Assembly: GCF_054482595.1 (NCBI RefSeq)
Contig: NZ_CM137008.1
DNA length: 64,000 nt
Reading direction: 5' to 3' (one strand)
In this document: piece by piece, positions 1 to 44,693 of the stretch
Layout of the letters: each line of letters opens with the position of its first letter
Numbering within the stretch: position 1 is the first letter of the stretch
Notes under the pieces: model-generated
Databases searched by the model: none
Told to the model about the DNA's origin: nothing
The model's input: the letters and a program-made list of their open reading frames with translations, nothing else
Program-made: the position numbers and the translations under genes

Positions 1-2727
<2,727 letters not shown>

Positions 2728-3040
2728 GCTTACCTTCCCTGAACGAGCTAACATAAATGCGCCCTTTCTAGCACAGCGAAAAAATGTAAATCCTGATAGC
2801 AATATGATTGAAAATTAATAACTTTTCGTTAGGCAGTTTTGGGTGTGAGTTGCAAGAGGGGAGACTACTGAATAACTCAAGTTTTATAATCGAGGGGAAA
2901 ATGGTGATGGCGTTCATAGCAAAACGCCCTCAACCATAAAGGTCGAGGGCGCTTAAGATGTTAAAAATCCGCTATCCGTTAAAAAACAATGTTCAACTAA
3001 GGTCAGTAACATTGCGCTAAAAAAGCGAATTTTTAGAATT

Positions 3041-3116
3041 TGGCTCCTCTGACTGGACTCGAACCAGTGACATACGGATTAACAGTCCGCCGTTCTACCG
3101 ACTGAACTACAGAGGA
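3041..3116 (-). tRNA. asnT: tRNA-Asn (GUU)
   Basis: Reverse complement reads TCCTCTGTAGTTCAGTCGGTAGAACGGCGGACTGTTAATCCGTATGTCACTGGTTCGAGTCCAGTCAGAGGAGCCA, a canonical cloverleaf with GTT anticodon. Confidence 0.9.
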
Positions 3117-3216
3117 ATCGTGTGAACGGGGCGCATATTACTTAGCGGTACCTTGTCTGTCAACACTAAATTTCATAAGTCATTTCAATTGGTTAATTAA
3201 TCTGCAAAGTTGTTAA

Positions 3217-4014
3217 TTAATGAACATTCGTCGCCGAAAACGAGTCTGTATCATTAGTGCGATGCAGTCTCTGCAAAGGATCTTGTTGATAAAATTGGCA
3301 GAAACGTTGCCACAATGAAGGGAAACGAGGAGCAAAAAGTTCTGGGGCGCTAAAGAAATATTCAGAAAGTACGGCAAAACATTCAGCAGGATCACTGGCA
3401 GCATAAGCATCAATGCTCGCCGCATTCTCGCCAACCAATTCGATTTCTTCCTGAATGTTGTTCATTGCAGCATGAAGATCGTGTTCCCAGCCAGCAACCT
3501 CACGCAACGGAATAAAGGGAACTCCGCTGGCGCGATCGCCGTTACGGGTGTCCAGCTTATGAGCGACTTCATGAATAATCAGGTTAAAACCAGATGCATC
3601 AAAAGAATCTTGTATATCCAACCAGTTCAAAACGATAGGCCCTTGCTGCCAGCTCTGACCTGACTGAACAATACGTTGGTTATGCACCAGACCGATATCG
3701 TCTTCCCATTCATCATCGACCACAAATGGCGCAGGATAAATTAAGACTTCATGAAAACCATCCAGCCATTCCAGTCCTAACTCCAGAACGGGTAGGCAAA
3801 ATAGAAGTGCTATCCGGCAGCTTCTTAATGAATCCAGTTCAAAGCCCTGTAAAGGAACAAGCCGCTTTTGCTGTAAAAAACGTTCGGCAAGAGTGACTAA
3901 TTTGCTTTGTTCCTGTTCCGTCAGACCCGTTAAAAGGGGGATCGATAGTGCTTCCTGCCAGGGAAGGGCAGTTTGATATGCTGATTCTTGTACTTTCCAG
4001 GGCCACTTAATCAT
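3217..4014 (-). CDS. mtfA: Mlc titration factor A (zinc-dependent peptidase family)
   Basis: ORF 3217..4053 trimmed to internal start [20 protein letters not shown] (265 aa); HEVAH zinc motif present. Confidence 0.85.
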
Positions 4015-4106
4015 CGTTTTGCTCGCAAACTCGTCACTTGAACAAAATTGCACGGACAGGGACTGTTAAAATGCCAAATTTCCTGGCATCATGGCAACCA
4101 TCTGAA

Positions 4107-4196
4107 CGGAGAGATGCCGGAGCGGCTGAACGGACCGGTCTCGAAAACCGGAGTGGGGGCAACTCCACCGGGGGTTCAAATCCCCCTCTCTCCGCC
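4107..4196 (+). tRNA. serU: tRNA-Ser (CGA), 90 nt with long variable arm; 3' part is the phage attachment core
   Basis: GGAGAGATGCCGGAGCGGCTGAACGGACCGGTCTCGAAAACCGG...GGTTCAAATCCCCCTCTCTCCGCCA; anticodon loop CTCGAAA. Confidence 0.9.
4135..4196. repeat. attL core: 62-bp direct repeat (2 mismatches) shared with attR
   Basis: cggtctcgaaaaccggagt[g/a]ggggcaactc[c/t]accgggggttcaaatccccctctctccgcca found at 4135-4196 and 43190-43251. Confidence 0.85.
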
Positions 4197-4243
4197 AAAA
4201 TTCAATCACTTACACATCATTAAGTCAGTGACAAAAATCACAC

Positions 4244-4278
4244 TTGGAATTACTTGGAATATTTTCTTGGAATATTTT
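4244..4278. promoter_or_regulatory. Three direct copies of TTGGAAT(ATTTTC): candidate integrase arm-type binding sites (P' arm)
   Basis: Copies at 4244, 4254, 4267; same motif at 43079-43089 and inverted at 43141-43150 near attR; overlaps int 3' end. Confidence 0.4.
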
Positions 4279-5275
4279 CAGGTAACGGGACATCAAGTGT
4301 TGGTGAAACTTTAACCTTCCTGTCATAGATTAGCACTTGCCCTTCGGTTTTGTGACCAGAGAAAAGTTGCTTATCCCGGCTGCTTCCTTCATAGTCTGAA
4401 ATTCCTTTCGCCTTCAGATCATGAAAGGTGAAGTCGGTTAAAATACCTGAAATTTTTCCAGCACGATTTCTTGCATCTACCCACATTTCGTTAAAGCCTT
4501 TGTACATATATCGGTTGCCGTATTGATTGCTGATCACATAGGCAGATTTTGGTAACTGTTTTGCTTTTTCGATCGCTGCCTGTAATCGTGGACTCCATGC
4601 TTTTATCTGTTTTTTTCCGGTTTTCCCTTGCTGGATGAATATCCCGTCGTTTCCAATCTGTTCCCATTTCAGCGATAACACATCGGAAACCCTCGCTGCA
4701 CACAGATAGGCAATTTCCATTGCGATAAAAACAGGAAGAGGTGCAACGCTTAATACTGCCTGGTATTCTTTGTCGGTTACATATCGTTCGCGGTTTTTGG
4801 CCTTGAATTTACTTACACCTGCACATGGGTTAGCCTTCACGTACCCTCGCTCATACCCCCAACTGTAAACACGGGACATACTGCTTTTTTCATGGTTGGC
4901 TTGCGTTTTACTCTGCTCCCCTCTTTTGTCCATGTATCGACGGATGTGTTCTGGTTTTATGGAATCCGCTGGTACCTTACCGAATACGGCAAGCAACTTT
5001 TTTTGATGTTGCAGATAATCTTTTTGTGTTCTTGGACTAAGGTCACTGTAATAGGCGCTGGCGAGGAATTTTTCCCACAAGCGACCGAATGTCATTGCAC
5101 GATCGCGATTATTTACAGTTTCCTCATACTTTTTCCATAAAGCAGCTAAACCATCCTTGATGGCGGTTAGTGTGACAGATTCTCTGGATGTTGGTTTCCA
5201 TACATAACTATATTTATTTGGGTATACATTTGGAGGTAATTTTTCGTGTTCAGGATTTTTCCTTCGTCTTCCCAT
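4250..5275 (-). CDS. int: Tyrosine recombinase / phage integrase
   Basis: 341-aa ORF adjacent to attL; C-terminal catalytic region with R...HxLR...Y-type residues (FTFHDLKAKG...LFSGHKTEGQVLIYDRK). Confidence 0.85.
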   Translation of the reverse strand: MGRRRKNPEHEKLPPNVYPNKYSYVWKPTSRESVTLTAIKDGLAALWKKYEETVNNRDRAMTFGRLWEKFLASAYYSDLSPRTQKDYLQHQKKLLAVFGKVPADSIKPEHIRRYMDKRGEQSKTQANHEKSSMSRVYSWGYERGYVKANPCAGVSKFKAKNRERYVTDKEYQAVLSVAPLPVFIAMEIAYLCAARVSDVLSLKWEQIGNDGIFIQQGKTGKKQIKAWSPRLQAAIEKAKQLPKSAYVISNQYGNRYMYKGFNEMWVDARNRAGKISGILTDFTFHDLKAKGISDYEGSSRDKQLFSGHKTEGQVLIYDRKVKVSPTLDVPLPENIPRKYSK

Positions 5276-5478
5276 CAGATCGCACCAAAATTCGGCTCTA
5301 CCTCGCGTGGTGGTAAAGTTTTATTGCAGGTAAATAGATCCCGGCTGACAATCGGTTTGCCACTACGATTGGTATAGAACGGAAGCCCGTTTTCCATTAA
5401 CCATTTTCGCTGGTGGCTTGCATATTTGCAGCCCGTTAATATTTGCAATTCATCTTCGGTTAAAAATAAGCTGCTCAT
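5275..5478 (-). CDS. xis: Excisionase-like small DNA-binding protein
   Basis: 67-aa ORF directly upstream of int with 1-nt stop/start overlap. Confidence 0.6.
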   Translation of the reverse strand: MSSLFLTEDELQILTGCKYASHQRKWLMENGLPFYTNRSGKPIVSRDLFTCNKTLPPREVEPNFGAI

Positions 5479-5536
5479 AGCTATATCTCATAACCGCCGC
5501 TAACTATATACGGTTAGCGGCAATTAGGGTTGAACA

Positions 5537-7978
5537 TTAAAAATCAGCCTGACTCGGGATCAGTTTTTGCCAGATAGCTGAAACGTATTTTGCCTGGTAA
5601 CGAGCGTCATCAAGTGCATTATGGCGCTCACCTTCGAATGGAATAGCCGTTCTGGCATCGAAGTCTATGGCTTTCCCCAGCTCAACGATTGTGCGTACAT
5701 CGCGATCGTTGTAGTAACGCCACGGGCAGGGGATCCCCTGCCGTTCGTATGAACGGCGCAAAATCGTGTTGTCGAAGTTGGCTCCATTTCCCCAGACCTG
5801 AACAAAAAATTCACCGGAGTTTTCGTCGATAAATTCCCGCAATTGTAACAGTGCATCATCTAACGGGATTTCATCGGTCATAATGGCAGATTGCGCTTCG
5901 CGTGATTGCTTAAGCCACCATTTAATGGTGTCCCGATCAATGACTCCGCCAGCAGTTTCCAGATCGATAGTCTTACTAAATTCCGGTCCCATATCTCCGG
6001 TTTGCGGATCGAAAAATATTGCACCTATTGAGATGATCGGGGCATCAGGATTTTTTCCCATGGTTTCAAGGTCGATCATTAGATGGTCACACGTCCTGCT
6101 GGTGGATGTGATTTCGTGATGACCGTTCACCTTAATTGAGTGATCTGCCGTCTCGCCAGTTTTATTATCGCTGGCGTGATGCTGATTGCCGCCAGGGTTC
6201 TCCTTGTGTGGATGTTCAGCGCCTTCCATTTCCTCCGGATCATTTTCCTGAACTTCAACCTGATTCTCTTCATCGAATGTTTCCTGGTATGTTGCGTCGC
6301 CCATCACCGCGCCACAATCAGGGCAGTTGACGCCACCGCTCTGACCGCAGGCGGTGCAGACTTTTTCCGGTTCCTGTTGCGCTACTGATTCGGATTGTTT
6401 CGTTTCTGGCTCGTTTTGTAACGCATTTGGGCTGTTTTGTTCCGCTTTTTGGTCGTTCCGTTCCGATTCATGCTGGTTCTGGTTCACAGAATCGCGAGTC
6501 TGGATCCCCTTGACCCATTTCGGATCATTAGGGTCGCTAATCCCCTCAACAAATTCACCACGCGATACAGCAAGTAACTTATCGGCGTCAGGCTGGCTGA
6601 TATTGGCTGCCTGCATAATTTTGTTTACTTCGTCAGCGGTGACTTTTACTTGGTTAGCGGAACTCACCTGCGACTGAGCATCCAGCGACTGCGCGTTCTG
6701 GCCATGTTCAGTTGTATCCGGTTCCATTGTTTCAGTTGTTGCCTGTTCACCTGCCATTGCGTCAGATGGTTGTGGTTTTTCTTCTTCTGTTTCACGCTCA
6801 GTAACCACCTCGCGGTTAATTTCTTCCAGGATATCTTTTTCCGGCGTATGCCGGGCAGCTGTGAGAGTTTCCTTGCTGGGGTTCTCGTGATCAGTTTCCG
6901 TCAAATAGGCGTTGATATACCCCTGAAGGCGTCCCGGGTAGTGATAAAATTCAGGGTGTGCGCTTCGGATAAGTGCAAAAATAGCGGCGCGGGAATAGTC
7001 CAGAATACCCGGGGTTGCACGAAGTGCTGCGGACCATTCTTTGAACGGACTTTCTTTGTTCAGGACTACTTCTTTTGCGCGACGATAAACGCTGCCCGGA
7101 ATTTCATAAATATTAAAATCCATCGGAAGTGTGGCTGCTGCAATCTCCACATCCAGTGTGTCGAGGGTGTGTACTAAATTCGGATTGCGATCGGTTTTGT
7201 TCCCACCGCCAGCATTAGCACCGGAAGCCGTGCGGGTGATGCGTGAAACACGATTTCCTTTCATCCACTCTTTTGTCAGCAGACCCCGATCAGTGTAGTC
7301 AGCGTCCAGGTATGCTTCGAAAAAAGCAGTTATTAGTCCCAGGTCTGAATTACCAGGATTAGGGAAAACTTTGTCAGTGTCACGAACCAGTTTGTGGAGG
7401 TCGCGAATCTCCAGCGAGTCGAGCAGACTGGTTTTATGCGAAATAGCCAGGGCAGTAACAGCCGGTAGTTCTTCAGCCCGTGCAATGTGTAATGCCTGGA
7501 GTTCGTCGCGTGAAACGTGCGTTACTGGTTTTTCGCTGCCGTGTTGAGCAAGCCAACGAATGGGCAGTTCCTGACCGGAGACAGGCAGAAGCATGCTCTC
7601 CTCAATCTCAGTCATGTCTTCGCCGTTGATGTTGGTATTGTCAGTGCTGGCTGGTTTGTCCTGAACAGAGGGGGAAGGGCCGATAAATGTCATTGTGATG
7701 CCATCTTTCCCGCCTTTTTCATAGCGGTTGCAGAATTCAGTATCAAACACGCCTTCTGGCGGAAGGTCGTCAACAACGGGCAAATTGACGCGGACGGGTT
7801 TTTTAAAGTCGTCTTCATCATAATCGTTGTCATCCATTGCGGTAATGCAGCGGGAGATTGCAACAGATAATTTTTTTGCTGTAGTCCAGTAAAAACCACC
7901 TTTAATTCCCAGGCGTTTTCTTACTTTGTCATTTTTTGCTTCGCAATATAGTGCAAATTCTTCTTTATCAGTGCTCAT
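5537..7978 (-). CDS. Large phage early protein with C-terminal DEDDh (DnaQ-like) 3'-5' exonuclease domain
   Basis: 813 aa; C-terminal motifs [21 protein letters not shown]; upstream Cys4 cluster [16 protein letters not shown]; long acidic low-complexity linker. Confidence 0.6.
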
Positions 7979-8071
7979 TATTGGTAAACCTCATCACAGA
8001 TTTAAGGGTGAACAAATCTCTGCCATTGCTGACATATAAGAATGAAACTGGATATTTATTACGGTGCTGTT

Positions 8072-8263
8072 TTAAAATCCTGCCGGGATTTCGTTATTAT
8101 CCTGGTGAATAACTTTATCGACCGGATAACAGTTGCCTGGAATTTTCTGTTCGGTTGCTGCTGCCATACATTCCTGCTTTGTTCTGTGAACACTGACTGC
8201 AATATCAACTGGCTCTCCGGAAACAAGAAAAACCGTCAGAATAAGTGCAAATACTGGATTCAT
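8072..8263 (-). CDS. ydfD: Small secreted/membrane protein, YdfD-like
   Basis: 63 aa MNPVFALILTVFLVSGEPV... with N-terminal hydrophobic segment; start overlaps dicB stop (ATGA). Confidence 0.5.
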   Translation of the reverse strand: MNPVFALILTVFLVSGEPVDIAVSVHRTKQECMAAATEQKIPGNCYPVDKVIHQDNNEIPAGF

Positions 8264-8448
8264 TGTGCACATCCTTTTGGCATCATACGTAAACGGGCCA
8301 GCATTGAAACAATGCATACTTTATTTAATAACTCCCGTTCGTGTTTTCTTTTGTTAATGGCATCTTCAGTAAATACAGGATTACTGATAGTGACACCAAT
8401 TTCAAAACAACCTTCAGACGTATTAACGTTTGGTAATAACGTTTTCAT
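8260..8448 (-). CDS. dicB: Cell division inhibitor DicB
   Basis: 62 aa MKTLLPNVNTSEGCFEIGVTISNPVFTEDAINKRKHERELLNKVCIVSMLARLRMMPKGCAQ, matching my recollection of Qin DicB. Confidence 0.75.
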   Translation of the reverse strand: MKTLLPNVNTSEGCFEIGVTISNPVFTEDAINKRKHERELLNKVCIVSMLARLRMMPKGCAQ

Positions 8449-8617
8449 TATCGCGCCCTCAACAATGAGTTTTGTGATGCGGTGCCTGGTGCCTCCAGGT
8501 GACGTTAACCAGTTAACAATTAACGCCGGATACAGAGAATCCACCCATAACACTGTTTTTGGTTTTAACTGTTCCGCGTGCGCTTAGCCGCATTCACCGC
8601 ATCACAAAATTCACTTT

Positions 8618-8675
8618 AAAAAGGGCGGCAGAGCAGTCACGGAGTAAAACTGATACCGCCAAACGTCACCAGAAA
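8618..8675 (-). ncRNA. dicF: DicF small RNA (ftsZ-targeting sRNA of the dicB operon)
   Basis: Minus strand reads TTTCTGGTGACGTTTGGCGGTATCAGTTTTACTCCGTGACTGCTCTGCCGCCCTTTTT, matching remembered DicF with terminal hairpin and U-run. Confidence 0.7.
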
Positions 8676-9015
8676 ATTGATAACAGAGGGCGTTGCAGCG
8701 GGGTTGTCACTTAAGCGTATGGTCAACCTGACAACCCGGTGTCCTCAACGGGGAAGGAATAACCCCGCCATACTTACCGCCGCGCCATTTCGCGGAGTGC
8801 CACAACCGGAAGCGCACGGTCGACGAAAATTTAACGACAGGCTATCTATGAACCAGCTACCTCGCCGTGCGCTTTCGCGTTATGGTCTGACTTTTCAGGG
8901 AAATATCCTTTCAGTAAACTGTCAGTGCCGGATGCTCACCCGTGTCCGGCGCACGCACTCCACCTCACCCGTGGAGAACTCCTTAATTACCAACCTTAGC
9001 TTCGTTGGTTAGCTA

Positions 9016-9234
9016 TTAACGCGGGTATGTAATCATTCTGGCAATGCTTAATGCCGCTGCTTTTTCCAGATTGGTGATATCCTGCTCCAGAGCGGACAGA
9101 TTTTCAGCCTGCTTAGCCCTGGCTTCATTAGCCCATTTCAGATCCTGCGCTGCATTAATTTTCTGGCGCATCCACTCATAAAGTTCATCATCGGTATAGT
9201 CTGGCGCGATTATGACGGGTTCTCGTTTCTGCAT
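9016..9234 (-). CDS. ydfC: Small early-operon protein, YdfC-like
   Basis: 72 aa from MQKREPVIIAPDYTDDELYEWMRQ...; position upstream of dicF as in Qin. Confidence 0.5.
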   Translation of the reverse strand: MQKREPVIIAPDYTDDELYEWMRQKINAAQDLKWANEARAKQAENLSALEQDITNLEKAAALSIARMITYPR

Positions 9235-9326
9235 GTCAGCTCCTTGTGGTTCGCATTGCCTGCTTTTAACCACGTCAGGCGAGGTGGTATCCTCTGAGGG
9301 GTCTGTTACTCGAGAGGAAATTGGTT

Positions 9327-18018: not shown

Positions 18019-18094
18019 GGCCCTTTAGCTCAGTGGTGAGAGCGAGCGACTCATAATCGCCAGGTCGCTGGTTCAAATCCAGCAAGGGCCACCA
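18019..18094 (+). tRNA. tRNA with CAU anticodon (Ile2/Met-like)
   Basis: GGCCCTTTAGCTCAGTGGTGAGAGCGAGCGACTCATAATCGCCAGGTCGCTGGTTCAAATCCAGCAAGGGCCACCA. Confidence 0.8.
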
Positions 18095-18095
18095 A

Positions 18096-18172
18096 CCGCC
18101 ACTAGCTCATCAGGAAAGAGCGTCAACCCTTTAAGTTGAGTGTGCGAGGTTCGAGTCCCCGGTGGCGGTCCA
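18096..18172 (+). tRNA. tRNA, anticodon read as UUU (Lys) but loop atypical; identity provisional
   Basis: Acceptor CCGCCAC/GTGGCGG, D and T arms, encoded CCA; anticodon loop CCTTTAA with C at position 33. Confidence 0.55.
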
Positions 18173-18174
18173 GT

Positions 18175-18250
<76 letters not shown>

Positions 18251-18253
18251 TAT

Positions 18254-18328
<75 letters not shown>

Positions 18329-35130: not shown

Positions 35131-38100
35131 ATGGGTAAAGGCAGCAGTAAGGGGCATACCCCGCGCGAAGCGAAGGACAACCTGAAGTCCACGCAGTTGC
35201 TGAGTGTGATTGATGCCATCAGCGAAGGTCCGGTTGAAGGTCCGGTGGATGGATTAAAAAGCGTGCTGCTGAACAGTACGCCGGTGCTGGACAGCGAGGG
35301 GAATACCAATATCTCCGGCGTCACGGTGGTGTTCCGGGCAGGCGAGCAGGAGCAGACACCGCCGGAGGGATTTGAATCCTCCGGCTCCGAGACGGTGCTG
35401 GGTACGGAAGTGAAATATGACACGCCGATCACCCGGACCATCACGTCTGCAAACATCGACCGTCTGCGTTTTACCTTCGGCGTGCAGGCACTGGTGGAAA
35501 CCACCTCAAAGGGGGACAGGAATCCGTCGGAAGTCCGCCTGCTGGTTCAGATCCAGCGTAATGGTGGCTGGGTGACGGAAAAAGACATCACCATTAAGGG
35601 CAAAACCACCTCGCAGTATCTGGCCTCGGTGGTGGTGGGTAACCTGCCGCCGCGCCCGTTTAATATCCGGATGCGCAGGATGACGCCGGACAGCACCACA
35701 GACCAGCTGCAGAACAAAACGCTCTGGTCGTCATACACCGAAATCATCGATGTGAAACAGTGCTACCCGAACACGGCACTGGTCGGCGTGCAGGTGGATT
35801 CGGAGCAGTTCGGCAGCCAGCAGGTGAGCCGTAATTATCATCTTCGCGGGCGCATTCTGCAGGTGCCGTCGAACTATAACCCGCAGACGCGGCAATACAG
35901 CGGTATCTGGGACGGAACGTTAAAACCGGCATACAGCAACAACATGGCCTGGTGTCTGTGGGATATGCTGACCCACCCGCGCTACGGCATGGGGAAACGT
36001 CTTGGTGCGGCGGATGTGGATAAATGGGCGCTGTATGTCATCGGCCAGTACTGCGACCAGTCAGTGCCGGACGGCTTTGGCGGCACGGAGCCGCGCATCA
36101 CCTGTAATGCGTACCTGACCACACAGCGCAAGGCGTGGGATGTGCTCAGTGATTTCTGCTCGGCGATGCGCTGTATGCCGGTATGGAACGGGCAGACGCT
36201 GACGTTCGTGCAGGACCGACCGTCGGATAAGGTGTGGACCTATAACCGCAGTAATGTGGTGATGCCGGATGATGGCGCGCCGTTCCGCTACAGCTTCAGC
36301 GCCCTGAAGGACCGCCATAATGCCGTTGAGGTGAACTGGATTGACCCGGACAACGGTTGGGAGACAGCGACAGAGCTTGTGGAGGACACACAGGCCATTG
36401 CCCGTTACGGTCGTAACGTCACGAAGATGGATGCCTTTGGCTGTACCAGCCGTGGGCAGGCGCACCGCGCCGGGCTGTGGCTGATTAAAACGGAACTGCT
36501 GGAGACGCAGACCGTGGATTTCAGCGTGGGTGCTGAAGGGCTTCGCCATGTACCGGGCGATGTCATTGAAATCTGCGATGATGACTATGCCGGTATCAGC
36601 ACCGGTGGTCGCGTGCTGGCGGTGAACAGCCAGACCCGGACGCTGACGCTCGACCGTGAAATCACGCTGCCATCCTCCGGTACCACGCTGATAAGCCTGG
36701 TTGACGGAAGTGGTAATCCGGTCAGCGTGGAGGTCCAGTCCGTCACCGACGGCGTGAAGGTGAAAGTGAGCCGGGTTCCTGACGGCGTTGCCGAATACAG
36801 CGTGTGGGGACTGAAGCTGCCGACGCTGCGCCAGCGCCTGTTCCGCTGTGTGAGTATCCGTGAGAATGACGACGGTACGTATGCCATCACCGCCGTGCAG
36901 CATGTACCGGCAAAAGAGGCCATCGTGGATAACGGGGCGCACTTTGACGGCGACCAGAGCGGAACGGTAAACGGTGTCACGCCGCCAGCAGTACAGCACC
37001 TGACCGCAGAAGTCACCACAGACAGCGGGGAATATCAGGTGCTGGCGCGCTGGGACACGCCGAAGGTGGTGAAGGGCGTGAGCTTCCTGCTTCGCCTGAC
37101 CGTGGCAGCGGATGACGGCAGTGAGCGGCTGGTCAGCACGGCCCGGACGACGGAAACCACATACCGCTTCACGCAGCTGGCGCTGGGGAATTACAGGCTG
37201 ACAGTCCGGGCGGTAAATGCGTGGGGACAGCAGGGCGATCCGGCATCGGTATCGTTCCGGATTGCCGCACCGGCAGCACCGTCGCGGATTGAGCTGACGC
37301 CGGGCTATTTTCAGATAACCGCCACGCCGCATCTTGCGGTTTATGATCCGACGGTACAGTTTGAGTTCTGGTTCTCGGAAAAACGGATTGCTGATATCAG
37401 GCAGGTTGAAACCAGCGCGCGTTATCTTGGTACGGCGCTGTACTGGATAGCCGCCAGTATCAATATCAAACCGGGCCATGATTATTATTTTTACGTTCGC
37501 AGTGTGAACACCGTTGGCAAATCGCCATTCGTGGAGGCTGTTGGTCAGCCGAGTGATGATGCGTCCGGCTATCTGGATTTTTTCAAAGGAGAGATAGGGA
37601 AAACCCATCTGGCTCAGGAGCTGTGGACGCAGATTGATAACGGTCAGCTTGCGCCTGACCTGACTGAAATCAGGACGTCCATAACGGATGTCAGCAATGA
37701 AATCACCCAGACCGTTAACAAGAAACTGGAAGACCAGAGTGCAGCGATCCAGCAGATACAGAAGGTTCAGGTTGATACAAATAATAACCTGAACAGCATG
37801 TGGGCAGTGAAGCTGCAGCAGATGCAGGACGGACGCCTTTATATTGCGGGTATCGGTGCCGGTATTGAGAACACCCCCGACGGCATGCAGAGTCAGGTGC
37901 TGCTGGCTGCAGACCGGGTGGCATTTATTAACCCGGCGAATGGTAACACCACTCCTGCACTGGTCACACAGGGCGGACAGACGTTTATTAATGAGGCGCT
38001 GATCAAGTTCCTTATTGCTCCCACGATTACCAGTGGTGGCAATCCTCCGGCATTCTCCCTGACACCTGACGGAAAGCTGACTGCTAAAAATGCGGATATC

Positions 38101-39334: not shown

Positions 39335-42259
39335 GTGAATATGGCAGTAAAGATTTCAGGTGTACTGAAAGACGGCACAGGAAAACCGGTTCAGAACTGC
39401 ACAATCCAGCTGAAAGCAAAACGTAACAGCACCACGGTGGTGGTGAACACGCTGGCCTCAGAAAATCCGGATGAAGCCGGGCGTTACAGCATGGACGTTG
39501 AGTACGGTCAGTACAGCGTTATTCTGTTGGTGGAAGGATTCCCGCCGTCACATGCCGGGACCATCACCGTGTATGAAGATTCCCAACCCGGTACGCTGAA
39601 TGATTTTCTCGGTGCCATGACGGAGGATGATGCCCGTCCGGAGGCTCTGCGCCGTTTTGAACTGATGGTGGAAGAGGTGACGCGTAACGCGTCCGCGGTG
39701 GCACAGAACACGGCAGCCGCGAAGAAGTCAGCCAGTGATGCCGGCACATCTGCCCGTGAGGCGGCAACCCATGCGACTGATGCTGCAGGCTCAGCGCGTG
39801 CAGCCAGCACGTCAGCCGGACAGGCCGCGACTTCGGCTCAGGAGGCGTCTTCCAGCGCAGGAACGGCATCAACAAAGGCCACTGAAGCATCAAAAAGTGC
39901 TGCCGCTGCAGAGTCCTCAAAAAGCGCGGCGGCCACCAGTGCCGGTGCGGCGAAAACGTCAGAAACGAATGCTGCAGCGTCACAAAAATCAGCAGCCACT
40001 TCTGCATCCACTGCGACGACGAAAGCGTCAGAAGCCGCCACTTCAGCCAGAGATGCGGCGGCCTCCAAAGAGGCGGCAAAATCATCAGAAACGAACGCCT
40101 CCACAAGCGCCAGCAGTGCAGCCTCCTCGGCAACGGCGGCAGGAAATTCCGTGAAGGCGGCAAAAACGTCCGAGACGAATGCCAGGTCTTCTGAAACGGC
40201 AGCGGAACAGAGCGCCTCAGCTGCGGCAGACTCTGAGACAGCAGCTGCATCATCGGCCCGTGAGGCGTCCATTAAGGCAGAGGAGGCAGCAGTCAGTGCC
40301 ACCGCCGCCGGAAAATCGGCAGAAAGCGCCGCATCATCCGCTTCAACAGCCACAACGAAGGCTGGCGAAGCCACTGAACAGGCCAGCGCAGCAGCGAGGT
40401 CTGCTTCCGCAGCGAAGACATCCGAAACGAACGCGAAAGCGTCGGAAACCAGCGCAGAATCCTCAAAAACGGCTGCCGCATCGTCCGCCAGTTCGGCGGC
40501 GTCATCGGCATCATCTGCGTCTGCTTCAAAAGATGAGGCGACCAGACAGGCGTCAGCAGCGAGGGGCAGCGCCACGACGGCATCCACGAAGGCGACAGAG
40601 GCTGCTGGCAGTGCGGCAGCGGCAGCACAGAGCAAAAGTACGGCGGAATCCGCGGCAACGCGCGCCGAGACAGCAGCAAAACGGGCAGAGGATATTGCAT
40701 CCGCCGTGGCGCTTGAGGATGCGAGCACGACGAAAAAGGGGATAGTACAGCTCAGCAGTGCGACCAACAGCACTTCCGAGTCACAGGCGGCAACGCCAAA
40801 AGCCGTTAAGGCCGCGTATGACCTGGCTAACGGGAAATACACCGCACAGGATGCAACGACAGCACAGAAAGGGATAGTTCAGCTCAGCAGTGCGACTAAC
40901 AGCACTTCCGAGTCACAGGCGGCAACGCCAAAAGCCGTTAAGGCCGCGTATGACCTGGCTAACGGGAAATACACCGCACAGGACGCTACGACAGCACAAA
41001 AAGGAATTGTCCAGCTCAGTAGTGCAACCAACAGCACATCTGAAACGCTTGCTGCGACACCGAAAGCAGTGAAAGCAGCTAATGACAATGCGAATGGTCG
41101 GGTACCTTCTGCCCGTAAGGTGAATGGTAAGGCGCTTTCAGCGGATATAACACTGACGCCGAAAGATATTGGTACGCTTAACTCAACAACAATGTCATTC
41201 AGCGGTGGTGCTGGTTGGTTCAAATTAGCAACGGTAACCATGCCACAGGCGAGTTCTGTTGTTTCAATTACGTTGATTGGTGGCGCTGGATTTAACGTGG
41301 GGTCACCTCAACAGGCAGGTATATCTGAACTTGTTTTACGTGCAGGTAATGGTAATCCGAAGGGGATTACTGGTGCTTTATGGCAGCGCACATCGACAGG
41401 GTTTACAAATTTTGCCTGGGTCAATACATCTGGTGATACTTACGATATTTACGTTGCAATCGGAAATTATGCGACTGGTGTAAATATTCAATGGGATTAT
41501 ACCAGTAATGCCAGCGTGACGATTCATACGTCACCAGCATATTCTGCTAATAAGCCGGAAGGGTTAACGGACGGTACAGTTTATTCACTCTATACGCCAT
41601 CAGAGCAGTTTTATCCGCCTGGCGCACCAATCCCGTGGCCATCAGATACCGTTCCGTCTGGCTATGCCCTGATGCAGGGGCAGACTTTTGACAAATCTGC
41701 CTACCCGAAACTTGCAGCCGCTTATCCGTCAGGCGTGATCCCTGATATGCGTGGCTGGACGATTAAGGGCAAGCCCGCCAGTGGTCGTGCCGTATTATCT
41801 CAGGAACAGGACGGCATTAAATCGCATACCCACAGTGCCAGTGCATCCAGTACGGATTTGGGGACGAAAACCACATCGTCGTTTGATTACGGCACTAAAT
41901 CCACGAATAACACCGGAGCGCACACCCATAGTGTCAGTGGTACGGCTGCTTCTGCAGGGGCACATACACACACGGTTGCCTGTTACCCATCTGGCAATAC
42001 CGAGCAGGGCGATAAAGCCCTCAAAGGTGCGTCTCGTGCAGGCTCGAGTACTGGCACATCGTCAGCCGGAGCGCATACCCACCCGGTGTCAGGTACTGCT
42101 GCAAGTGCAGGTGCACACGCGCATACTGTCGGTATTGGTGCTCATACGCACTCCGTTGCGATTGGCTCACACGGACACACCATCACCGTTAACGCTGCTG
42201 GTAACGCGGAAAACACCGTCAAAAACATCGCATTTAACTATATTGTGAGGCTTGCATAA
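39335..42259 (+). CDS. stf: Side tail fibre protein with long Ala/Ser/Thr-rich repeat region, three tandem ~41-aa repeats and His-rich C-terminus
   Basis: 974 aa; repeats [25 protein letters not shown]; C-terminal [18 protein letters not shown] repeats. Confidence 0.75.
40735..41100 (+). repeat. Three tandem ~123-bp coding repeats inside stf
   Basis: Units at ~40735, ~40858, ~40981; first two near-identical. Confidence 0.7.
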
Positions 42260-42843: not shown

Positions 42844-43189
42844 GCGAAAAAGAAAAACCGCAGACACGACGTATGCAGGACGTGCTGCGGTTGGCTGGTG
42901 AACTTTCGATAGTGCGAGTATTGAATGATTTCCAGCCGTTACCGATTTTATATAACTGCAGTGGAATTATTCAACACACAGGCAAAACGGAATAAGCTGA
43001 GAAAAAAGCGTGCTTTCCCAATCTGGGGCAAATCACGTCTGAATGACACCTGAAAACAGGTGGTGGACTCAAGACGGCTTGGAATATTCTTCTTTAATGT
43101 TATGTAATTCATTGATTTTTCGTGTACGATTTTAAGACATTTATTCCAAGAAAAATTTTTAACTCTTTGATTTTTCGACTCTGTATCAT

Positions 43190-43251
43190 CGGTCTCGAAA
43201 ACCGGAGTAGGGGCAACTCTACCGGGGGTTCAAATCCCCCTCTCTCCGCCA
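43190..43251. repeat. attR core: partial serU 3' end (62 bp)
   Basis: Direct repeat of 4135-4196 with 2 paired differences. Confidence 0.85.
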
Positions 43252-43820
43252 CTTTATCAATGACTTATCTCCCGACTTCCCGCCTTGCTTTTCCTAAACA
43301 GAACAATCGTAGAATATTCTTGAAGGGTTAGATCGTCACTGTTTTCTGTTCGATACTGTGACATTCAGCACTTGATTCGCTATGGATCTGACAGGAAGCT
43401 TTCGAGCGAAAATGTGCAGTTATTCAGTCGTTTTCTTATCGCTCACCATTATTCTTTTAGACATTCATCCTATGAAACTGCCGCAAAGTTGGTGGTGGGA
43501 ACTGAAGTTGCGTAGAGAAGGGTTCAATAATTGAGTCAAAAAAGGAACGCGGCCGTCAGATTAAAGCCGCGGGACAAAGTCCATAATTTCCAAGAGTTGT
43601 TGAATTTCCCAGCTTTTTTGAAAGCCTTTGTATCATACTAACAAGTAAAAAAGGTTTAAATACCAAAATTAACCTGTATTTTTGATAAGTCTTACCATTG
43701 TACGATTTACACAGTTTCTGCTCCTCCTTGTTGATAGTGGAAAGGGTGCATTGTGCACTTGCGTAAACATTTATGACGCGTTGATGTCCATGGTTCACAT
43801 TTCCTTGTCAGGGGATCGAC

Positions 43821-44351
43821 TTATTTGCGGCGAGGCATCATTCGTAACAGAGTATTATCTTTCTGAATGTAGTGATGAAAGAGTGCTGCGCCAGCGTGAG
43901 CTGCGATTAAAAAGTAACCTATATTTGCCCAGGTTTCGTGAATATTTTTTATCAGTGCTTTAATTTCGCTGTTTGGGGTAACAAAGGGAGACACATTGAA
44001 ACCAAGGAAACTCCACGATTTTCCACTGTAAGCCATCAAAGCAATCCCCAGCAGAGGAAGTGCAAGGAAGGTTATATAAAGCATGATGTGCATTAGCGAA
44101 GCCGCTTTCATTTGCCAGGCAGGTGGCGGTGGCACAATAGAAGGATCACTATAACGGTGTTTTATAATCAGGCGTGAAAACATTAACACCCAAACGAATA
44201 TACCCGCATTGTAATGTGTTTCTCGCATCAGCAGATAAGTACTACTACCTTTAGGAAACCAGCCACGGAGTTCCATCGCGGCATAGGTTATTGCAACGAA
44301 AAGCAGCGTTATCCAATGTAAATAAATTTGAGTTTTTGAGAATCGGTTCAT
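43821..44351 (-). CDS. yodB: Cytochrome b561-family membrane protein
   Basis: 176 aa from MNRFSKTQIYLHWITLLFVAI...; multiple TM segments. Confidence 0.8.
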   Translation of the reverse strand: MNRFSKTQIYLHWITLLFVAITYAAMELRGWFPKGSSTYLLMRETHYNAGIFVWVLMFSRLIIKHRYSDPSIVPPPPAWQMKAASLMHIMLYITFLALPLLGIALMAYSGKSWSFLGFNVSPFVTPNSEIKALIKNIHETWANIGYFLIAAHAGAALFHHYIQKDNTLLRMMPRRK

Positions 44352-44693
44352 TTTTGTAGCTCCTGTAATTTTTACAGTCAAGCTATCCCACGAACCTTAA
44401 AAATTCCTTATACAGATGTGGTTTTAAGAATTTGTTATTTAAAAAATTGATAGTGCACATTGTAACCAGCCAATATAAGCAATGGCGTGAGCACAGGTAT
44501 CTTTCTCTGTTGGCCGTATTGTGTATGGAATCCGTTATTGGTTAACTCAATGCGGGTTAGCTTATTAATATACAGACACGTCATAGTGATGAGCGTGTCT
44601 GTAGCTAGCTTGCGTTCAGTGGCGTTTGTGGATGGACCAGTGGCAGTTATGATGACTTACTAAAGCGGCATCGAGGCGTTATCATGAGAATAC

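Follow-up and report, generated by a model that had tools for sequence, protein, structure and literature searches.

A two-sided base-pair difference in the variable arm of serU and the probable crossover site of a lambdoid prophage in Escherichia coli

Introduction

Anticodon-centred integration sites in tRNA genes were reportedly named class ‘A’ by Williams in 2002. The logic of such sites, with a regenerated target gene and a displaced fragment, has been described (PMC4383910), and in the class ‘A’ sites of the Islander database (PMC4383910) the integrase gene sits beside the rebuilt 3’ end of the tRNA gene, the displaced fragment is found at the opposite end of the element, an identity block extends from the anticodon stem as far as CCA, and tandem arrays can occupy the same tRNA gene. 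The serine tRNA gene serU is known to host lambdoid prophages in STEC O145:H28 and O121:H19 (PMC7067040, PMC8767318) as well as PAI-serU in UPEC 536 and CFT073 (PMC7545054). Integration of this kind into serU is therefore already known: the hot spot is documented and the anticodon-centred mechanism is textbook.

The 64-kb stretch of DNA analysed here, which we call the window, is E. coli chromosome with a 39-kb lambda-like prophage inside serU. All of the class ‘A’ features listed above are shared by this locus, with no difference in kind, except that its identity block is imperfect at one two-sided pair of the variable arm, which is G-C in the left copy (attL) and A-T in the right copy (attR). 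The STEC serU prophages, PAI-serU and phage SerU-LTIIb (KU052038) use the same chromosomal site, and SerU-LTIIb has the same kind of attR, with an A-T core and the same host flank; compared with the window, the described serU prophages are mosaic and carry other right arms and cargo. Further afield, the cores of Citrobacter phage Chris1 (ON041214) and of the Klebsiella serU prophage ST101-KPC2phi6.3 start at the same base and are followed by a similar P’ arm (xTATTCAAxCACTTA), and the Chris1 integrase is 58% identical to that of the window and shares its HDLK motif. Both of these cores carry A-T, so that the G-C pair is not universal among phages that target serU.

With the lambda Int/Xis/attP system, which has a heterobivalent integrase, arm-type and core-type sites and a 7-bp overlap, the window shares a near-full-length Int alignment, an MGRRR N-terminus, a small excisionase gene upstream of int, repeated short motifs in both arms, and the order attL-int-xis...tail fibres-attR. 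It differs from lambda in that its target is a tRNA gene whereas lambda uses the gal-bio intergenic site, in that its excisionase is of the DUF4224 type, in that a Lys stands in place of Arg311, and in that its arm sites and overlap region are predicted.

Results

The serU gene and its 62-nt repeat

Positions 3000-5200 of the window match strain KV7 at 100%, and the same stretch was found in 1138 of 5426 complete genomes. A repeat finder reported a single long-range direct repeat in the window, of 62 nt and with an offset of 39054, which pairs 4136-4197 with 43190-43251. Base-by-base comparison of the two copies gave 60 identical positions out of 62 (97%), the only mismatches being 4155 G against 43209 A and 4166 C against 43220 T. 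On the left the repeat is limited by a C at 4135 against a T at 43189, and on the right by the CCA end, where 4197 and 43251 are both A. The preliminary description had placed the mismatches of the right copy correctly at 43209 and 43220; its bounds for the left copy (4135-4196) and its left mismatch positions (4154 and 4165) were each one base too low. The features of this region are as follows.

4108-4197, + strand: serU, tRNA-Ser(CGA), intact, 90 nt (ARAGORN; cloverleaf fold; tRNA-Ser annotated in matching genomes)
4135-4151, + strand: anticodon stem-loop with stem CCGGT/ACCGG, 7-nt loop CTCGAAA at 4140-4146 and anticodon CGA at 4142-4144 (fold)
4136-4197, + strand: attL core (BOP’), starting at base 2 of the anticodon stem and ending with CCA (direct repeat, its register and mismatches)
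4153-4168, + strand: variable arm, 6-bp stem 4153-4158/4163-4168 with loop GCAA, polymorphic pair 4155 G : 4166 C (cloverleaf fold)
4198-43189: lambdoid prophage body, about 39 kb (ORF lists; annotated KV7 relative, aligned to the window)
43190-43251, + strand: attR core (POB’), 3’ serU fragment with 43209 A : 43220 T, taken to be the host version (repeat comparison)
43252-44381: downstream host flank of serU, ending with yodB (ORF 43821-44381, - strand) (attB reconstruction; yodB/zinT annotation; ORFs)

The serU gene is made up of 28 nt of host DNA at its 5’ end and the 62-nt att core at its 3’ end, and the part 3’ of the crossover (variable arm, T arm and 3’ strand of the acceptor) was probably supplied by the phage. 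ARAGORN and the fold showed the class II features expected of tRNA-Ser: a cloverleaf, a paired extra arm, the anticodon CGA and an encoded CCA end. At the attR core no tRNA was called by ARAGORN and no Rfam tRNA match was obtained, hence it is not a tRNA gene; promoter, terminator and Rfam scans around both cores returned nothing informative.

The host flank 43252-44381 is contiguous with serU in prophage-free genomes. Over its first ~15 bases this native flank (43252-43267, CTTTATCAATGACTTA) resembles the start of the P’ arm (4198-4212, AAATTCAATCACTTA), and BLAST carries attL-to-attR alignments out to 77 nt. An ancient prophage remnant could explain this likeness, as could chance or a common signal for Int binding or processing. 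On the other side of the locus, asnT (tRNA-Asn, 3041-3116, - strand) lies 1 kb from serU and is unoccupied, with yeeJ (1-2727) directly adjoining; in other strains asnT is occupied by an integrase, and one record has a salicylate synthetase gene nearby.

The prophage and its recombination genes

The prophage encodes int-xis, a RecE-like exonuclease, dicB/ydfABC, an immunity region, replication functions, Q, a tRNA cluster, lysis, terminase, an HK97-type head, a lambda-type tail and tail fibres, and the prophage of strain KV7 is a mosaic relative of it. The tRNA cluster (18019-18328, + strand), downstream of the Q antiterminator region, comprises a tRNA with anticodon CAT (tRNA-Ile in KV7), Lys-TTT, Thr-TGT and Gly-TCC. 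A tail-fibre ORF at 39335-42259 contains three tandem 132-nt units (40716-41111) with 100%, 92% and 64% identity to the first. The genes and candidate sites next to the attachment cores are these.

4243-4274, + strand: P’ arm, 46-77 bp past the core, three direct CTTGGAATW repeats that run into the 3’ end of int, candidate arm-type Int sites
4250-5275, - strand: integrase, 341 aa, lambda-Int-like tyrosine recombinase (PF00589, PF22022, PF14659; phrog_1; lambda Int alignment)
5275-5478, - strand: excisionase candidate, 67 aa, DUF4224 (PF13986; PHROG phrog_1266, 4764 and 8896)
43078-43086, + strand, and 43142-43150, - strand: two CTTGGAATA copies in the P arm, candidate arm-type sites (motif scan of the window)

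The int gene lies 52 bp from the 3’ end of serU, and its product matches the Pfam models Phage_integrase, Phage_int_M and a SAM-like N-terminal domain. It aligns with the lambda Int structures 1z1b and 5j0n from residue 1 (MGRRRK) to residue 313, with weak similarity (E ~1e-12), such that its N-terminal MGRRRK region, a predicted arm-binding segment, is aligned with residue 1 of lambda Int. Among the catalytic residues, Arg, Lys, His and His are aligned with those of lambda Int, and a Lys stands in place of the conserved second Arg (Arg311). The catalytic Tyr can be placed by position in LIYDRK, just beyond the aligned stretch and nine residues after the second His, a gap which we take to equal the spacing of Tyr342 in lambda Int. 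The substituted Lys is residue 288 (HDLK, where lambda has HELR), and as the same Lys is present in the 58%-identical Chris1 Int, it looks like a family trait, not damage. In several genomes, int (window 4225-5275) is labelled ‘frameshifted’ by the NCBI annotation even though the ORF is a full 341 aa; this is probably an annotation artefact at the C-terminus. Aligned with the DEC5B Int, annotated as intact, the window Int shows 95% identity and no gaps. The wide spread of the element together with its tandem arrays suggest that the integrase is active.

The excisionase candidate overlaps the start of int by a single base (5275), and its PHROG matches, at E = 5e-22, are to excisionase families. 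The window holds five occurrences of CTTGGAATW, all within ~115 bp of the cores, against 1.1 expected by chance, and these repeats are plausible candidates for arm-type Int sites. The inverted P-arm copy (+ strand TTATTCCAAG) was seen in every attP-type junction whose P arm was read, in stretches that exclude the region of the direct P-arm copy.

The differing positions form a compensated pair

The preliminary description had proposed that the two differing positions face each other in the variable arm and that pairing is kept in both versions, and the minimum-free-energy cloverleaf bears this out. The differing sites are tRNA positions 48 and 59, which pair with one another as the third pair of the 6-bp variable stem GUGGGG/CUCCAC, and the fold is unchanged when the attR core is substituted into serU. 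With G-C at 48:59 (the attL version) the fold energy is -42.6 kcal/mol, with A-U (the attR version) -40.6 kcal/mol, and with G-U -40.3 kcal/mol in the same fold, while A-C alters the minimum-energy fold (-38.4 kcal/mol; -39.5 in the cloverleaf). The core offers 1891 possible position pairs, of which only 15 are base pairs with both partners inside it, so that two random differences would be partners with a probability of ~0.008, a figure (0.8%) that refers to partnering only and does not yet require compensation. None of the ~45 sequences that we read directly had a mixed allele (G...T or A...C).

For recognition by seryl-tRNA synthetase, what chiefly counts in the long variable arm is its length and orientation, not its sequence, and a swap of G-C for A-U is therefore expected to be tolerated. 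The chimeric tRNA presumably functions normally. In Salmonella, serU was among twelve tRNA genes that were deleted and is described as nonessential (bioRxiv 10.1101/2024.04.04.588050). Our limited literature search found no mention of the variable-arm polymorphism, and the compensated pair itself may be an unpublished detail of a known system.

Empty serU sites carry mostly A-T

An empty site was reconstructed from the left flank of the window, the attR core and the right flank; over 1147 bp it is 100% identical to the sequence of many E. coli genomes, and in the matching genomes mtfA and tRNA-Ser are contiguous with the downstream host DNA. Our allele counts rest on the exact-match bands of BLAST searches across 5426 complete E. 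coli genomes, made with 99-nt queries and an E-value limit that admits only near-full-length matches (the band of at least 99% identity being an exact match). Empty serU sites were present in 3885 of these genomes, with an exact A-T match in 3716 and an exact G-C match in 76. By this comparison, the host allele is shown to be the attR version, A-T. An empty site with the attL version had been named beforehand as the observation that would speak against this assignment; about 96% of empty sites have the other version, and about 2% have the attL version.

We read three of the G-C empty sites (KBN10P04869, 90-9281 and E7476). They are identical to each other over 3.1 kb, and therefore at least these three represent one haplotype and not independent events; with respect to the window flanks they are 97.5% identical and have no yodB between serU and zinT. 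The haplotype, which runs asnT-mtfA-serU-zinT with an integrase gene adjoining asnT, occurs in strains from different countries. It may be a horizontally spread block, possibly one that travelled together with the HPI island, or it may be a scar of prophage loss, for example by homologous deletion of a prophage; alternatively, the phage allele may have come from it.

Junctions with phage DNA on both sides carry mostly G-C

Writing out both crossover positions showed that a junction with phage DNA on both sides always carries the phage-derived allele, wherever the crossover lies, so such junctions provide an independent test of the phage allele. Free attP sites and the middle junctions of tandem prophages were taken together as this class. 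Overall, 17 of 19 both-arm junctions had G-C: 11 of 11 in complete E. coli genomes (where the query mismatches sit in the P arm), 2 of 2 in IMG/VR contigs, and 4 of 6 in metagenome contigs, the other 2 of 6 being A-T. On this evidence the phage allele is shown to be the attL version, G-C. The segregation of the alleles at empty and both-arm sites agrees with the earlier proposal that the 3’ part at attL comes from the phage and that the copy at attR is the displaced host segment. At the same time, neither allele is strictly phage-only or host-only, and the assignment for a single genome is a strong likelihood rather than a proof.

Several candidates for a free-phage attP were rejected. The only close matches in the GenBank phage collection, ON470583 and ON470580, are prophage predictions that include host mtfA and tRNA-Asn, and their junctions are attL; the lambda-like phages ev099, mEp332 and PhiR70_1 have a fossil attR with host flank, and a different int elsewhere. 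Outside E. coli, a scan of 100,044 species-representative genomes found the G-C variable arm in only three other Enterobacterales, each time followed by a P’-arm-like flank, and these arms look prophage-associated too.

Attachment junctions in the population, tandem arrays and fossil sites

An attL junction with this P’ arm is present in 1148 of 5426 genomes, and in 798 of them it matches exactly with G-C and a C at 4213. Both of the one-mismatch examples that we read had G-C with a C/T difference at 4213, and in a ranked sample of attL matches this class makes up most of the 350 non-exact ones. A-T at attL was seen in 2 genomes with 4213C and in 30 with 4213T, that is, in at least 32 of 1148 (~3%). 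The two A-T both-arm junctions (of 19) and the A-T attL sites mostly have the 4213T arm variant, which would fit either a minority phage lineage or gene conversion.

The combination of P arm and core, a class that pools true attR, tandem middle and fossil junctions, was found in 749 genomes, with an exact A-T match in 567 and an exact G-C match in 16. The latter 16 looked like counter-examples. Of five inspected, four (Z1323CEC0012, DEC5B, 2013C-4991 and BA92) are the middle junctions of tandem prophages, with a second int after them, and the fifth (ETEC6333) is a fossil site with host flank inside another prophage.

Tandem double prophages do occur at serU. In Z1323CEC0012 (7927-7988 and 35327-35388 of locus L013) attL has A-T and the middle junction has G-C, and therefore two phages with different attP alleles integrated in succession; the second int of this array is broken by an IS66-family element.

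Fossil serU attR sites in free lambda-like phages consist of the P arm, the 62-nt core and ~280 bp of the E. coli DNA found downstream of serU. Those that we located are homologous to window 42995-43529.

ev099, locus L008, 3806-4340: fossil attR
PhiR70_1, locus L009, 3806-4340: fossil attR
mEp332, locus L004, 1304-1838: fossil attR
ETEC6333 prophage, locus L025, ~1465-1660: fossil attR

They are set between a tail-fibre assembly gene and an AraC-family gene, among IS remnants, in phages that have their own int. The core allele is A-T in ev099, PhiR70_1 and mEp332, and G-C in the ETEC6333 prophage. The fossil attR looks like an old product of aberrant excision that was later spread by recombination.

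Position of the crossover

Considering that the host allele is A-T and the phage allele G-C, and that the window has G-C at attL and A-T at attR, strand exchange can be mapped to within 4136-4154. This interval of 19 bp consists of the CGGT-CTCGAAA-ACCGG anticodon stem-loop and three further bases. A crossover 5’ of the variable arm had been anticipated in the preliminary description, and it is the linked differences, with the phage version at attL, that narrow the exchange to these positions. The 7-nt anticodon loop, flanked by a 5-bp stem, is identical in attL and attR. In lambda-type systems a 7-bp overlap, which has to be the same in both partners, is flanked by inverted core-type sites; by analogy with lambda Int, the loop may well be the overlap region, with the stem halves as inverted core-type sites.

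Discussion

Our comparisons indicate that a lambdoid phage very probably integrated into serU with a crossover in 4136-4154, leaving its own G-C 3’ part at attL and the host A-T part at attR. According to this model, Int of a lambdoid temperate phage would recombine its attP with the host attB in serU. The attP would contain the final 62 nt of the tRNA gene in copy, with exchange taking place in the anticodon stem-loop, where this block begins on its 5’ side, so the working serU at attL would receive the variable arm, T arm and acceptor 3’ strand of the phage, while the original 3’ part of the host would stay at attR as a non-functional fragment. The phage copy would be one variable-stem pair off the E. 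coli copy, G-C for A-U, with both sides changed and the fold of the chimeric tRNA kept. Precise excision by Int/Xis would then re-sort the alleles, G-C back to the phage and A-T back to the host, and because each allele is in this way returned to its own lineage, the two would remain largely lineage-specific through cycles of lysogeny. Points against the model are the incomplete partition of the alleles among empty sites, attL and attP-type junctions, the Lys at the position of Arg311, and the ‘frameshifted’ label given to int in several genomes.

The opposite assignment would make G-C the host allele and A-T that of the phage, and would move the crossover to the 3’ side of the variable arm (4167-4197, in the T arm or acceptor). 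The 76 complete genomes with a G-C empty serU site could be read in this way, and T-arm and acceptor sites are a common class of tRNA integration site (PMC4383910). However, this assignment predicts A-T at both-arm junctions, where G-C was found in 17 of 19; the empty sites whose flanks are 100% identical to the window are A-T, whereas the three G-C empty sites that were read are a single haplotype with only 97.5% identity to the window flanks and without yodB; and an identity block that begins at the anticodon stem is the signature of anticodon-centred sites. We therefore consider the opposite assignment very unlikely. Even harder to credit, and in our judgement extremely improbable, is an origin of both differences after integration, through compensating mutations at attL or decay of attR, and not from attP. 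An attR fragment free of selection as a tRNA could drift, and compensation by way of a G-U intermediate would be energetically mild (-40.3 kcal/mol), but the attR version is the empty-site allele of 3716 genomes, and so has not decayed, and the attL version, found in at least 798 lysogens and at attP-type junctions, must be older than this integration.

The pattern might also have been set by homologous recombination or gene conversion, whether of the 62-nt repeats with each other or with DNA from outside, in which case the Int crossover could not be read from it. Such events probably do occur: A-T is found at attL, or at both ends, in at least 32 lysogens, G-C empty sites exist, and so does a fossil attR with G-C and host flank. 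These exceptions are nevertheless minorities of ~2-3%, and the dominant pattern (G-C at attL and attP, A-T at attR and at empty sites) is that of a fixed crossover 5’ of the variable arm. The window itself combines this dominant pattern with the 4213C arm variant, which has A-T at attL in only 2 genomes, and for this locus such an explanation is highly improbable. Int-mediated integration with exchange in the anticodon stem-loop thus remains our preferred reading.

We also considered whether the phage G-C pair is kept by selection and is not a neutral marker, which seems very unlikely to us. With two mismatches in it, the 62-bp homology of attL and attR consists of perfect runs of 19, 10 and 31 bp, and if selection were indeed acting, this interruption should lower RecA-dependent loss of the prophage while leaving a working tRNA. 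In a related reading, a tRNA-Ser(CGA) modified by the phage, its variable stem strengthened, would be expressed from about one E. coli genome in five, and a phenotype is possible.

Our results leave the understanding of integration at tRNA sites unchanged and do not point to a new mechanism. What the compensated pair offers is a natural marker that, from the sequence alone, places the Int crossover within 19 bp. As a marker, the pair could tell host from phage ancestry of a tRNA 3’ part and the order of events in tandem prophages, and it may separate precise excision from homologous deletion: precise excision restores A-T, whereas homologous deletion within the 31-bp right-hand run would leave G-C, and in that event the G-C empty sites could mark places where a prophage was lost by homologous recombination. 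With the attL junction present in 1148 of 5426 genomes, about one in five complete E. coli genomes has a serU with a phage-type 3’ part.
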